NCBI GenBank assembly: GCA_964016885.1
Contig: OZ024740.1
Coordinates: 226,486,001 to 226,550,000 of the forward strand
DNA: 64,000 nucleotides
Source: Eledone cirrhosa
Lineage: Eukaryota
Direction: 5' to 3'
In this document: one piece after another, positions 6,717 to 61,469 of the stretch
Layout of the letters: the number at the start of each line of letters is the position of its first letter
Numbering within the stretch: position 1 is the stretch's first letter
Program-made: the position numbers and the translations under genes
The notes under the pieces: model-generated
The model's input: only the letters and a program-made list of their open reading frames with translations
The model's database searches: none
Told to the model about the DNA's origin: nothing

Positions 6717-6898
6717 CAATATATTAACAAATGGAAACTATATTTATAAAACCATATTTATTTCATTATACATATTTCAAGGACACCAAAGCAAATTATG
6801 GTGCGCTTTCATCAGATAAAATATAATATAGATCAGTTTTATAAACAAATATTGACGTACCCTTAAAGAATGCGACCGTGTCGGTTGGAAGCTCCCGG
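6717..6898 (-). mobile_element. HHR-bearing short element, family A (putative PLE pLTR) in (TA)n
   Basis: Homologous to 18938-19140, 24297-24592, 48222-48402 and 60920-61045; flanked by (TA)n on both sides. Confidence 0.8.
6759..6823 (-). ncRNA. type I hammerhead ribozyme (family A)
   Basis: tattttat CTGATGA aagcgcacca...tggtgtcctt GAAA tatgta TA atgaaata; 8-bp stem I and canonical core. Confidence 0.75.
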
Positions 6899-7179
6899 AT
6901 ATATATATATATATATATATATATATATATATATATATATATATATATATATATATATATATATATATATATATATATCATATATATATCAGTCCAATCT
7001 ATGCAAGACTGTAAAATTGTGATGGTTGTGAGGAGGAGGGTGATGATGATATATCTATGTATCTATCTATTCATATATATATATATATATATATATATAT
7101 ATATATATATATATATATATATATATATATATATATATATATATATATATATATATATATATATATATATATATATACA

Positions 7180-7872
7180 GGAAAAAATGAAACAAAATTT
7201 CATTTCTCACTCTTAGTACGGCTGTTACTTAAATATATGTATGTATACGTACATACATATATGTATACAGACGTACAGTAGTATGTATATATATAGACAT
7301 ACATGCACACATATATATATATGTATGTATGGATTCACCGAACATTTATTATAATGCTCGGTGTGTTTGTAAACAAACATCCCGAATTAAGCCGTATTGT
7401 CTAGCAACCATCGTTGCTCGTTTGTTCAACACTGACAAAGGAACGATATACTAGTTTCAAGCTTATTAGCTATCGTCAGTAACGTATACCGTCCTGCCAG
7501 ATGATTGAACGTCTGAAAGTATATACTATCCTTATGCATATTAACGGCTGAGCAGCCTAATTTGCATATCGAGTGAGTTAATCGGCCGGGGTACCGAAAA
7601 CGATAAACGGAAAAAATGAAACGAAATTTCATTTCTCACTCTTAGTACGGCTGTTACTTAAGTATAAGTATGTACACATACATACATATATGTATACAGA
7701 CGTACAGTAGTATGTATATATATATACATACATGCACACATATATATGGATTATTATAATAAATGTTCGGTGAATCCATACGTACATATATATATGTGTG
7801 CATGTATGTATATATATATATACATACTACTGTACGTCTGTATACATATATGTATGTGCGTATACATACTTA
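7180..7872 (-). mobile_element. partial-tandem (429-bp period) plus inverted non-coding element carrying an HHR
   Basis: Direct repeat starting at 7181 and 7610; 7753-7872 is an inverted copy; homologous to 6160-6430. Confidence 0.75.
7443..7485 (-). ncRNA. minimal type I hammerhead ribozyme
   Basis: Minus strand: acgtta CTGACGA tagct aata agctt GAAA ctag TA tatcgt; canonical core, palindromic ACTAGT stem III, GUA cleavage triplet. Confidence 0.75.
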
Positions 7873-7919
7873 TATATATATACCTTTATATATAAATATA
7901 CCTTTACATATATATATAT

Positions 7920-8122
7920 AGTTGCCTAAATATGTGGTTGCAGTCAATAAAGAAAGAGCCCTCAATACGTAATCTTAGAGGTAAATATACTATATTGCAT
8001 AAAATACATGGCAAAGTGGCGTATACTTTCCTAGGTACTCCGAGTTTCCCAAACGAAAATCAACTTGCTTCAGGAAACTCTGAGTAGCTAGAAGGTATAC
8101 AACAGTTTGCCATGTATTTTAT
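7920..8122. repeat. fold-back element
   Basis: Inverted repeat ataaaatacatggcaaa...gagtttcc (7999-8049) / ggaaactc...tttgccatgtattttat (8073-8122). Confidence 0.6.
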
Positions 8123-8274
8123 ACACACCTTCTCCATTCTGACTGTCAGGGCTGTGGGGAGGCCAGCACCTGGGACCCCATTTGCTTACCATACAGAGAG
8201 ATGGGGAGGGTGAGAGAGATGGAGGTGATGACAGTGGGAGTTCGGCTCTTCCAAGTTCAGACCATATCCTTGTG

Positions 8275-8497
8275 GTTGTGTTTATTATGTGGCCGTGTAG
8301 GCAACACGGTAAAAACCTCCCAGACCCACACTGTAAATGTGGTTGGTGTTAGGAAGGGCATCCAACTGTAGAAAACCTGCCAGACAGTCCTATGCGAGCA
8401 AGACAATCACTCTTGCCTCAAGTGGGACTACCCCCGTCCAAACCCATGCAAGCGTGGAACACGGACGTTAAACGTTGATGATGATGATGATGATGAT
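8275..8497 (+). mobile_element. RTE 3' UTR/tail
   Basis: Near-identical to 32240-32452; ends in (GAT)n. Confidence 0.85.
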
Positions 8498-9348
8498 AGA
8501 AAATTATTTATTTCCCACCTCTCGATTATTACCTAAATATATATATGTATATATCTATAAGATGATAGCAAAGAAGCAGAGAAGTGTTATGATATTTAGT
8601 TGCCCATCTGCCAGTATGCACTACACTTCCTTGTCCACCTCACCCCATATTAATCCCCTTTTCCTGCCTGAGAAAGTGGTTAGTATAATATATTGTATGT
8701 TCTTTATATTTTTCATCATGTTTTCACACTTATTTTTATCACCATATTTACCTTTACAATCATCACTTCCCTTCTTCCTCTATCCTCTGCTATCCCCCTC
8801 TATCCTCCTCTATCCTTCACTATCTTCCTCTATCCTCCACCATCCTCCTCTCTCCTCCTCTATCCTCCGCTATCATACATCCTGCCTAATCACTCAAATA
8901 TTTCCAAATTATTTTGTTAATTATTATAATCATTATTATTATAACATCAGTTTTTCTTAAATACATTAATTTGTAAATTCTTGAATTCTTAATCATTAAT
9001 TTAAGGTTAAATTATTACCAACAGTTTGAATTTATCTTCTAAATTGCAAGTAAAAAGATCTAAATAGACATAAATACAAACACACATACAGACTAATTTT
9101 TTAAAATGTAGATAAGAAGGATGTTGATAGAGAGATAGAGAGATAGAATTCCAGACAATTAGGTAACTAAGTAGATAGATAGACATATAAGTGTAACAAA
9201 GACACACTTAAAAACACACACACTCACAGACACACATTCACACAAATACACATACATTCACACACACACAAACAGACACATTTACACAAACGCACACACA
9301 CACTCACACACAAGTGTAATGAATGTTAGATGCTATTTTCTGTAGATT

Positions 9349-59055: not shown

Positions 59056-59248
59056 TTTTAGGGACGGATTGGCAGTATCGGTAGAGGGTCGGACTCCATA
59101 CTTTGACGCATAGAGCTACGGCCCTTGCCATTCTGAGTTCAAATCAAGCCGAGGTTGACTTTGCCTTTCATCCTTACAGGGTTGATAAAATAAATACCAG
59201 TAATGCACTAGGTAATTGCTGGCCTTGTGCCAAAAGTAGCAACAATTA

Positions 59249-60560
59249 TTTAATTATTTCGTCAAAAGTATTTAATATAAAGAATATTTCCTCTATACAA
59301 AGATCACAATTTTCAGAAGAGGAGTTAAAAGGAGTAGCTTTTGAAATAATATTCCAAAGCAACGAATATTTAACGTTCTTTAGTTTGAGGTCCCATAATA
59401 AGCTAGATAGAGAAGTTGAAGATTTTTTGTTTGGATTTGTAAAAGAATTTTTATGATTATTGAAACGGGATTTAAACTCTGTGGAAGTGGATCCCACATA
59501 ATTAAATGAATTTAAATTAGTTTTTACATTACAATTATATACTAATTTTTAGCTAAGCAATTGTTATTTAACGGACAGTTAGATTTATTTCTACAGTTAC
59601 ATTTATCAAATTGGATATTGCTTGGGTTATTAGTGGTATTTTGGTTAGGTTTTAAATTTCTATTATTAATTCTATTAATATTTTGCGCTAAATTTTTGGT
59701 GGATGAATAAGTTAATTTTATAGTATGTCTATTAAAAATTGAGTAATATCTATGTGTTCTAGGGAAGCATTGGTCAAGAGCTTTAAAAAATAGTTTAGCA
59801 ATAGGGGTTTTAATATTTAATGAGAAAGGAGGAGCGAACCATAATATATTCCTAGTTCTATTTCTTTTTTTGTTTTCCGAATTATTGTAAGGTTTTCTAT
59901 TATAGTTGTTAAAATTGTTAAGATTATGGTTAGTTGTTATATTATTATTATCAATGTATTTAATTTTATTTCTATACCCAGCTCTACCTAACGCTTCGTT
60001 GTAATAATGTGCTTTTTCATCAAATATATTCTTATTAGCTGAAATTCTCGAAATGCGTTGCTGTACAGAGTTCACTTAAGTATTTTTAACGGATCTGGGG
60101 TGATTAGAGTTAAAATTGACGTAGTTTAAGTTCTCGTTTAGTTTGTGAAATGGATAATGAAGACATGTGTTAAGGTTTAGTGTTACATCTAGAAAGTTAA
60201 CTATTTTATGGTTATTCTCTTTTAGATTAAGGTAATTAAAAAATTGTATAATTTGTTTTCTTTTCCTATTTAGTTCACAGTTATTATTTTCTATAAGTAA
60301 AAGCATGTCGTCACGATATAAACCTCCGGTCATCACAGGTATTTTCCTATGTAGAGAATTATTTATAAAGAAGCTCACAAGATCCGTTACCTGAGCGGAA
60401 TCAGATGATCCCATAGTTATATCAAAGTTATTATTTCTATCTGCTCTAGTCCAGAGTTGGTTATTAAATTCTATTAATGTTTTCCGTGCCGATAATATAA
60501 TGTGCATTTCATTGATGTGCATTTCATTAATGTGAATTTCATTGCTAGTTAAGTCTGTAT
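59249..60560 (-). mobile_element. AT-rich Penelope-like element fragment (RT + GIY-YIG)
   Basis: FDITMGSSDSAQVTDLV, GLYRDD, VNFLDVTLNL, SNHP, WFAPPFS, CNCRNKSNCPL, GSTSTEFKSRFNNH, CDLCIEE. Confidence 0.92.
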
Positions 60561-60689
60561 GTTTAAATGCGTTTATATATGTATTTCATTGCTAGTTAAG
60601 TCTGTATGTTTAAATATGTTTATATTTTATCTGATGAAAGCACACCATAATTTAACTTGGTGTCCTTATATATATATTTTTTTTTTTTT

Positions 60690-60908
60690 TCAATCGATCG
60701 ACTTTCGTCAAATCGGACCGAGGAAACAATGTTTCCGTTGGTCTTTCCAGTTGCTAGTACTATCTATCGGTCGCAACTCCAGGTAGAAGGAGCAACGTGA
60801 AATAAAGTGTCTTGCTCAAGGACATAACGCATCGCCCGGTCCAGGAATCGAACTCACAACCTCAAGATTGTGAATCCAATTCTCTAACCACTCAGCCACA
60901 CGCCTTCA
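60690..60908 (-). mobile_element. tRNA-derived SINE
   Basis: Minus strand tggctgagtggt ... gagttcgattcc; ccttgagcaagacac body. Confidence 0.75.
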
Positions 60909-60959
60909 CAATATATATACGATATTAACAAATGGAAACTATATTTATAAAACCATATT

Positions 60960-61024
60960 TATTTCATTATACATATTTCAAAGACACCAAGTTAAATTAT
61001 GGTGTGCTTTCATCAGATAAAATA
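60960..61024 (-). ncRNA. type I hammerhead ribozyme (family A)
   Basis: tattttat CTGATGA aagcacacca..tggtgtcttt GAAA tatgta TA atgaaata; a truncated plus-strand copy lies at 60623-60667. Confidence 0.75.
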
Positions 61025-61469
61025 TAAACATATTTAAACATACATATATATATATGTGTGTGTGTGTTAATATATCCTTTTCAGACCTATATAATCATGT
61101 TTATATATATGTATATTTATGAATTATAGGTTTGCTATATTATGAATGTTTTGTTTGGCTGTATATTTCTGTTTTTATTAAAATCATGAATTTTTAAAAC
61201 ACGATCAAACTTTAATGAAGTAACATTGTTATTAATTGTTTTTATTAATAACATATTTAATATATATGAGTAAAGACAATAACATATTTCTTACTAGGTT
61301 GTAAGTATTTCCTCTAAACCCTCTGTTTTCTCTTTTGTTTGCTCATTCTGACTCAAATTAAAATTGTTCCATATGTTTACATTTACTACTTCAATCCACT
61401 AACTCTTTCCTATAGAAAATTATACAGGGTGCAACATAAATACTGTTACAAAATATTAAGTGAGTTTAA

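Follow-up and report, generated by a model that had tools for sequence, protein, structure and literature searches.

The 64-kb window analyzed here, that is, the whole stretch of DNA at positions 226,486,001 to 226,550,000 of contig OZ024740.1 in the Eledone cirrhosa assembly GCA_964016885.1, has a GC content of 36% and contains many TA and CA microsatellites together with remnants of long and short interspersed nuclear elements (LINEs and SINEs) and Penelope-like elements (PLEs). At five loci within it, TA microsatellites hold insertions of a repeat of about 180 bp without an open reading frame (ORF), which we call family A. These insertions account for seven hammerhead ribozyme motifs, which fall into two subfamilies within the window, A1 and A2. 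Their sequence supports assignment to the type I hammerheads of the PLE or retrozyme kind, with catalysis predicted, and we consider it very probable that the fold is a selected hammerhead.

The family A repeat and its copies

Two of the five loci hold full copies of the short form of A1, at 6717-6898 on the reverse strand (core at 6815, predicted cut after 6767) and at 48222-48401 on the forward strand (180 bp; core at 48305, predicted cut after 48353). Both lie between (TA)n runs, begin at the identical base and stop about 48 nt past the predicted cut. The first is the best-folding copy; the second is decayed, with private changes at 48302 and 48334 that disrupt the fold. The other three loci are head-to-head joins of 5'-truncated pieces. 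At one, an inverted A1 3' piece with a 90-nt tail (18850-18988, reverse strand) abuts a 5'-truncated A1 copy (18985-19138, forward strand; core at 19042, predicted cut after 19090) in which a private change breaks pair 10.3; the inverted piece has its 5' truncation inside 4 nt of microhomology (18985-18988), and the predicted cleavage site falls within these 4 nt. At the next, two A2 copies form a palindrome, with a left arm that has the short 3' end (24290-24436, reverse strand; core at 24389, predicted cut after 24345) and a right arm that has the tail (24449-24687, forward strand; core at 24496, predicted cut after 24540). At the last, an A1 fragment that stops before GAAA (60620-60667, forward strand; core at 60631) is joined head to head with a PLE, and an A1 3' part with a chimeric outer stem I arm lies at 60920-61044 on the reverse strand (core at 61016, predicted cut after 60968). 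The cuts after 19090 and 24540 are those that a first-pass annotation of this DNA had anticipated. An nhmmer search of the window with a family profile found no copy beyond these eight pieces, and exact 30-nt probes had no match in metagenome contigs, prokaryotic genomes or viral contigs.

We rejected a count of the seven motifs as independent (below, + and - after a core position denote the strand). The motifs 24389- and 24496+ belong to one palindrome, and 60631+ and 61016- share a chimeric junction, with 28 nt of upstream sequence in common that includes PLE-derived letters; 11 nt are in common with 6815-.

All eight 3' ends of family A adjoin TA runs, against a background of 7%, and so do both full-length 5' ends. 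There are two alternative 3' ends, 90 nt apart: a short end 48 nt past the cut and a tailed end 138 nt past it. The 90-nt tail is found in one A1 and one A2 copy, and the two tails are homologous (score 88; best of 300 shuffles 48). We also surveyed reads over 48218-48412, comprising 29,667 reads from restriction-site-associated DNA (RAD) sequencing and 5,017 contigs from organism A, 57 contigs from organism B and 4 from organism C. The 3' end runs on into (TA)n in 5,891 reads and into the tail in 8,142. One contig from organism B begins near the 5' base of the two full copies, after a (TC)n run. A copy number of the order of 10^4-10^5 is suggested by the five loci in 64 kb together with a summed contig depth of 0.6-3.5 million (no direct copy number) against 7-38 per single listed contig. 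RAD read counts were rejected as copy numbers, because 5,057 loose ends begin at one likely restriction site. As a separate observation, the 5' end at 48224-48230 is predicted to pair with the 3' end at 48380-48387 (forward strand), closing the whole 180 nt.

These ends bear on an alternative in which the copies are heavily 5'-truncated 3' ends (solo pseudo-long terminal repeats) of an autonomous PLE whose ORF lies outside the window, and no non-autonomous element exists. Most animal PLE hammerheads are single motifs, probably from truncated PLEs (PMC4209133); here, five of the seven motif-bearing copies are 5'-truncated, and read depth falls towards the 5' end, which is partly an edge effect. 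Against this stand the start of two separate copies at one base after (TA)n and the organism B contig that starts near it. Moreover, no copy in the window runs on into an ORF in the same orientation, and five short probes had no match in published Naiad, Chlamys and Hydra consensi, exact matching being a weak test. We regard this alternative as unlikely.

Core and geometry of the motif

Positions within the motif follow the usual hammerhead numbering, in which N7 is the free position of the core. In the first-pass annotation, the coordinates of the six complete motifs and of the truncated one mark where an 8-bp stem I ends on the outside; each of the seven CTGATGA cores was confirmed, at 6815-, 19042+, 24389-, 24496+, 48305+ and 61016-, plus 60631+ in the truncated copy. 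The complete copies consist, in order, of an 8-bp stem I arm, CUGAUGA, AAG, C, six pairs, a loop, C, CU(U/A) and GAAA, followed by a 6-nt spacer, UA and the second stem I arm. The core (CUGANGA, GAAA and UH with A15.1-U16.1) is intact in all six. Stem II has 3 + 6 bp around a C.C mismatch and is thus long enough for the long helix II (7-8 bp) of this class, stem III has 2 bp, both AU, and in A1 no unpaired base lies between 9 and 10.1, as pairing starts directly after A9. The region made up of 15.2-16.2 and loop 3 is self-complementary, with 8/8 positions pairing in 6/6 copies, and a G>A variant of loop 3 in the reads retains this property. Helix I is predicted to be far longer than the short helix I of minimal PLE hammerheads. 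The predicted cleavage junction is uncut in all six complete copies.

A search with a type I motif descriptor, which the first-pass annotation had proposed as a check, recovered five of the six complete motifs and an unrelated motif at 13558+; 48305+ was missed because of its two private changes. In 100 local third-order Markov simulations, the descriptor found 0.05 loci per 64 kb, with a maximum of one.

This chance rate counts against the view that family A is a non-autonomous DNA element, similar to a Helitron or HINE or to a miniature inverted-repeat transposable element (MITE), in which a hairpin and a subterminal inverted repeat came to resemble a hammerhead by chance in one ancestor. 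A TC start after A, a hairpin and CTAG are Helitron traits. Family A has a possible TC start after A, a subterminal inverted repeat of about 12 bp (48273-48284 with 48368-48379) and, in A2, CTAG directly after the hairpin; all copies come from one ancestor; and the window contains a fragment at 25089-25418 (forward strand) that we take to be Helitron-helicase-like, which has no Pfam match. CTAG, however, is not where the copies terminate. A choice of two 3' ends, 5' truncation at variable points and inversions joined head to head are traits of retroelements, and the variation in the stems, described below, is of a kind that tolerates G.U and points to pairing in RNA. A DNA element is therefore a very remote prospect.

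The first-pass annotation had also called the AUA cleavage triplet atypical, which cannot be upheld: AUA is the natural triplet of the eggplant latent viroid (+) hammerhead, if the slowest of the four triplets tested (PMC1636495). More atypical than AUA are the non-G-C pair at 10.1-11.1, the conserved C.C in stem II and the long stem I. G10.1-C11.1 is described as highly conserved in PLE hammerheads (PMC4209133), and exceptions with U.U are known (PMC3088659). Many published Hydra hammerheads have no G10.1-C11.1, with U.U common and no A.A among the motifs compared, and neither the fixed C.C nor the long stem I has a counterpart among the entries compared in the same motif table (PMC8557442).

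Other motifs of this type lie in the window. At 13553-13600 (forward strand) there is a near-textbook minimal PLE-type hammerhead with a bulged G, a 6-bp stem II and a short loop 3, followed by a TA run; it passes the type I descriptor and matches no Rfam model. Further CUGANGA cores with nearby hairpins at 7479-, 26002+, 24159+, 21891+ and 25607+ probably belong to other hammerhead families. Of these, 26002+ passes a relaxed descriptor; inspected by eye, 7479- looks like a full motif in which stem II starts from U.U. The others are partial.

Covariation and sequence variation

The first-pass annotation had reported that stem II covaries between copies. The hexamer pairs that it quoted (acacca/tggtgt, gcacca/tggtgt and gtacca/tggtac) are all present, but they amount to one contrast between A1 and A2: two-sided pair changes within the window number 2/26, both between these subfamilies, and gcacca/tggtgt is a one-sided G.U change in a single copy. 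Two copies, 48305+ and 24389-, each have one broken stem II pair, and we rejected the stem I arm of 61016- as natural covariation, as it is the chimeric junction. In a six-row alignment, 88.5% of cells are paired, compared with 35-48% in slid controls, and the covariation score is higher than in 498 of 500 shuffles, although shared descent by itself can be enough to pass this control. Taken alone, covariation in the window is thin, a single subfamily contrast and not several independent events. The further claim, that the fold was under selection in source elements, fared better: A1 and A2 differ at 0/12 core columns and 45/150 other columns (P about 0.014), and the variants listed from the reads also avoid the core.

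For the read survey, 40 of 75 variant rows are listed, and the counts that follow refer to these 40. Seventeen lie beyond the predicted fold, 11 affect loops or bulges and 10 affect paired positions, two revert private changes of the reference copy, and none is in the core. They fall on 10/72 paired versus 8/22 unpaired positions (Fisher p 0.03). Pairing is kept in nine of the ten rows at paired positions (p about 0.02 against the transition rate; p about 0.02-0.05 over three simple tests). Two rows pair only with a partner change that is itself listed, namely 48313A>G with 48340T>C and 48317C>T with 48336G>A. A third subfamily, found in the loose ends (14,268 reads), has A at N7 and G-C at 10.2-11.2, retains the C.C and has a stem II longer by about three pairs; over the three subfamilies, compensation is thus seen at three stem II pairs. 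Variation that tolerates G.U points to pairing at the RNA level, and 12 fixed core positions beside changing N7, loops and stems are the pattern expected of catalytic constraint.

Folding and the dimer model

Folded in its full context, the copy at 6717-6898 forms a rod in which stem I is extended to about 26 bp (8+5+13) and stem II pairs have P of at least 0.93. In one copy, closing stem III in the monomer costs 2.9 kcal/mol; also for one copy, an explicit double hammerhead joined through the self-complementary 8-mer has -35.8 kcal/mol, compared with -30.0 for two open monomers. At the palindrome locus (24290-24687), RNA that spans the two arms is predicted to form a single long hairpin (-219 kcal/mol), inside which both motifs would be buried.

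Animal type I motifs have been described as inactive in monomers and weakly active in dimers (PMC4209133), and the axolotl motif has a dimer-dependent form (PMC7229834). The modeled folding of family A matches this dimer model: the prediction is that its hammerhead has almost no activity as a monomer and cleaves once two copies pair, and we would give the majority sequence a slightly better than even chance of measurable dimer cleavage in vitro. The suggestion of the first-pass annotation that these are type I hammerheads of PLE or retrozyme type, probably dimer-dependent, thus agrees with the core, the self-complementary loop 3 and the PLE signatures set out below, with cutting itself predicted by modeling.

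A different possibility is that the fold goes back to a hammerhead, has since lost the ability to cleave, and is kept as an RNA structure for recognition by a PLE protein. The non-canonical 10.1-11.1 (A.A in A2), the all-AU stem III and the slow AUA triplet are compatible with this, as are the poor cleavage of minimal PLE hammerheads (PMC4209133) and the finding that hammerhead cleavage is dispensable for insertion of an anole PLE in vitro (PMC11167929). Its weakness is that the 12 core positions are fixed while N7, loops and stems vary, and that published Hydra hammerheads also often have no G10.1-C11.1 (PMC8557442). We judge this possibility distinctly improbable.

Signatures of Penelope-like elements

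Three traits have been described for PLEs (PMC8557442), namely insertion into (TA)n, copies that are inverted and 5'-truncated, and a 3' tail that may or may not be present, and family A has all of them. In the anole PLE studied in vitro, a tail comes from two start sites of the reverse transcriptase (RT; PMC11167929). For six Hydra consensi in the literature, counting by eye gives distances of 36-47 and 88-116 nt from cut to end (PMC8557442). From these sequence features, we hold with considerable confidence that family A would have been mobilized in the manner of PLEs. The A2 tail at 24600-24630 (forward strand) bears a faint resemblance, by eye, to the tails of published Hydra consensi.

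The PLE joined to family A is a decayed, 5'-truncated, Hydra-clade-like element at 57801-60585 (reverse strand), with an RT, a CxCX5C linker and a GIY-YIG domain with CxxC + CxH; the linker and these two motifs are listed for the Hydra clade (PMC8557442). At the junction (60583-60620), the family A fragment stands head to head with the truncated PLE via short filler and a 33-nt duplicate (60583-60615, forward strand) of the PLE's truncated end (60536-60568), an arrangement that looks like template switching in one event. This PLE has a hammerhead of its own, a different, degenerate, Hydra-style motif at 57851-57801 (U4 -> A). Because that hammerhead differs, we rejected the neighboring PLE as the parent of family A and treat it as a candidate for the type of mobilizer; assignment of the mobilizer to the Hydra clade is tentative, somewhat short of an even chance.

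Two further features of this PLE are a SINE in its endonuclease region and a 3' region of about 1 kb. By eye, it also has a WFAP-x-FSLN stretch in common with Hydra-1_Obim and not with other consensi. In all, there are at least four PLE-like remnants in the 64 kb. Three more fragments, at 21939-22682 (forward strand), 28336-29327 (reverse strand) and 52513-53172 (reverse strand), have weak GIY-YIG matches or an RT match at E 1.9e-7, and protein searches found many relatives of the RT and GIY-YIG fragments.

A model for family A

The account that we favor, and consider reasonably likely, is that family A is a short ORF-less repeat of TA microsatellites with a type I hammerhead, copied in trans by the RT-endonuclease of a (TA)n-targeting PLE. 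A source locus would be transcribed, and its RNA would form a rod with the hammerhead at the tip and a stem I of about 26 bp. The PLE protein would nick (TA)n and start reverse transcription at either of two internal sites, yielding the short end or the tailed end. Inversions would result from template switches, once onto RNA or cDNA of a Hydra-clade PLE. The insertion template would be uncut RNA, as in the anole PLE; the uncut junction in the six complete copies implies that uncut RNA is the usual template. The 2-bp, all-AU stem III would be too weak alone, and the self-complementary 8-mers would join two copies as a double hammerhead that cuts after AUA. Its most plausible role would be at source loci, in trimming precursor RNAs that are multimeric or result from read-through, with most dispersed copies decaying.

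Alternatively, the copies may be dispersed monomers of a non-LTR (long terminal repeat) retrozyme, whose tandem-array RNA is cut to unit length, circularized and reinserted by a PLE. The size, the missing ORF, the type I motif and the dimer-type stem III fit, one inverted copy is truncated at the predicted cut site, mussels carry such elements (PMC7229834), and families differ in their share of monomers over the whole span from 0 to 1 (bioRxiv 10.64898/2026.07.22.740005). What speaks against a retrozyme is that 0/5 loci in the window are head to tail, that the ends are fixed and not permuted, and that in neither of the two tailed copies does the tail rejoin the 5' end. We think this alternative improbable.

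A bolder reading is that family A is a SINE-like passenger of Hydra-clade PLEs with tens to hundreds of thousands of solitary copies in octopus-like genomes and an undescribed architecture (rod-like 26-bp stem I, fixed C.C in stem II, A-U base pair). Because stem III is a simple AU palindrome, any two copies on one long pre-mRNA could then form a double hammerhead and cleave host transcripts. This reading is a long shot.

Several results weigh against trans mobilization of a selected, cutting hammerhead. In the motif, 10.1-11.1 is A-U in four of the six complete copies and A.A in two, and not G-C; a subset of reads shows C at 11.1, where the partner lies outside the view. A search with the Rfam hammerhead model, as the first-pass annotation had suggested, drew a blank: two small scans (Rfam release 15) that covered three copies gave no hammerhead match at E<=10, and none is among the 150 of 209 whole-window matches listed. 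The only matches in the Rfam scans were sub-threshold hairpins, all explained by microsatellites and inverted repeats. This miss weighs little, because the more textbook control at 13558+ likewise matches no Rfam hammerhead model. Past the cut, the 3' region at 48357-48391 shows the same lack of variation as the core, which makes the constancy of the core non-specific, and the read variants are unphased, listed in part (40 of 75 rows) and locus-biased by RAD sequencing. Folding z-scores of -2.0 to +1.4 in 6/6 copies (-0.64 for the whole element) are unremarkable, and the case rests for that reason on core, geometry and variation, not on stability. The stem I register of the hammerhead reaches P of at least 0.3 in only two of five copies folded in context, with about 0.45-0.5 for 6815-, 0.3-0.4 for 19042+, about 0.1 or less for 61016- and 24496+, and 0 for 48305+. 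The cofold minimum (-36.2 kcal/mol) uses other intermolecular helices whose energy is similar, and a palindrome of A and U alone comes cheaply in this genome.

As for mobilization, no parent ORF of family A was found in the window or in protein searches, the Hydra link is one junction with a PLE that carries a different hammerhead, and the 90-nt tail exceeds the 30-40 bp described for PLEs (PMC8557442). Finally, the truncation at 18988 is one of five breakpoints examined and none of six opposite-strand read joints lies at the cut site, so we keep it only as a lead.

Other repeats in the window

Among the remaining repeats is a LINE reverse transcriptase with a PHD finger at 20066-21772 on the reverse strand (RVT_1 E 8e-34, PHD E 3e-6), and there are several decayed LINE RT copies (31043-31951; 35388-36663, reverse strand). 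A 424-bp element with long terminal inverted repeats, MITE-like, lies at 45708-46131, a 41-bp tandem array at 9274-9929, and a mariner-like transposase remnant at 27416-28144 on the reverse strand (HTH_48 E 0.013). SINE-like families with tRNA-like heads (partial matches to Rfam tRNA) are abundant, for example at 34529-34780, 48418-48622 and 51486-51690; presumably these are octopus SINEs.

Comparison with known systems

Hammerheads at the ends of PLEs and in repeats derived from them are well described, and many animals have thousands of copies (PMC4209133); they number up to 120,000 in axolotl, according to a section title (PMC7229834), and are reported from squid, where 235 were counted (PMC6962438), and from an Octopus Hydra element (PMC8557442). 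In the literature searched, family A itself is undescribed, Repbase and Dfam being outside that scope, and it is probably present in cephalopod repeat libraries as an unclassified repeat. Exact probes of the consensi of Craig et al. gave no match, which is weak evidence. Family A overturns nothing; it is a clean, abundant, ORF-less family with compensation at the subfamily level that Rfam misses. The Rfam hammerhead families have the same core letters.

The minimal type I hammerheads of metazoan PLEs (PMC4209133) share with family A the type I topology, the intact core, the long helix II, the self-complementary 15.2-16.2 and loop 3, and the mostly solitary copies, with some pairs on opposite strands described at 100-700 bp apart. 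Family A differs from them in several respects: G10.1-C11.1 is missing, A1 shows no clear bulge from 9 to 10.1, stem II has a conserved C.C after three pairs, helix I is predicted to have 8+5+13 bp instead of 4-5, and no copy was seen to flank an ORF.

Hydra-clade PLEs (PMC8557442) resemble family A in (TA)n targeting, in a hammerhead about 40-50 nt from a short 3' end, in the existence of longer-ended consensi and in the frequent non-G-C 10.1-11.1; the clade is known in Octopus bimaculoides, and a Hydra-like copy is joined to family A. Family A, in contrast, has no ORF, a motif that by eye is unlike all rows of file S2 of that paper, including Hydra-1_oBim, and a stem III of 2 bp as against 3-4 bp in the Hydra stems listed there.

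Given insertion from uncut RNA, family A offers a compact test of the function of PLE hammerheads. With animal non-LTR retrozymes (PMC7229834; bioRxiv 10.64898/2026.07.22.740005), it shares a non-coding sequence of a few hundred bases, a type I hammerhead and probable movement by PLEs; head-to-tail repeats and circular RNA define retrozymes, whereas the window holds no family A tandems. Family A is thus also a test of whether non-autonomous passengers exist as solitary units, as opposed to tandem retrozymes.

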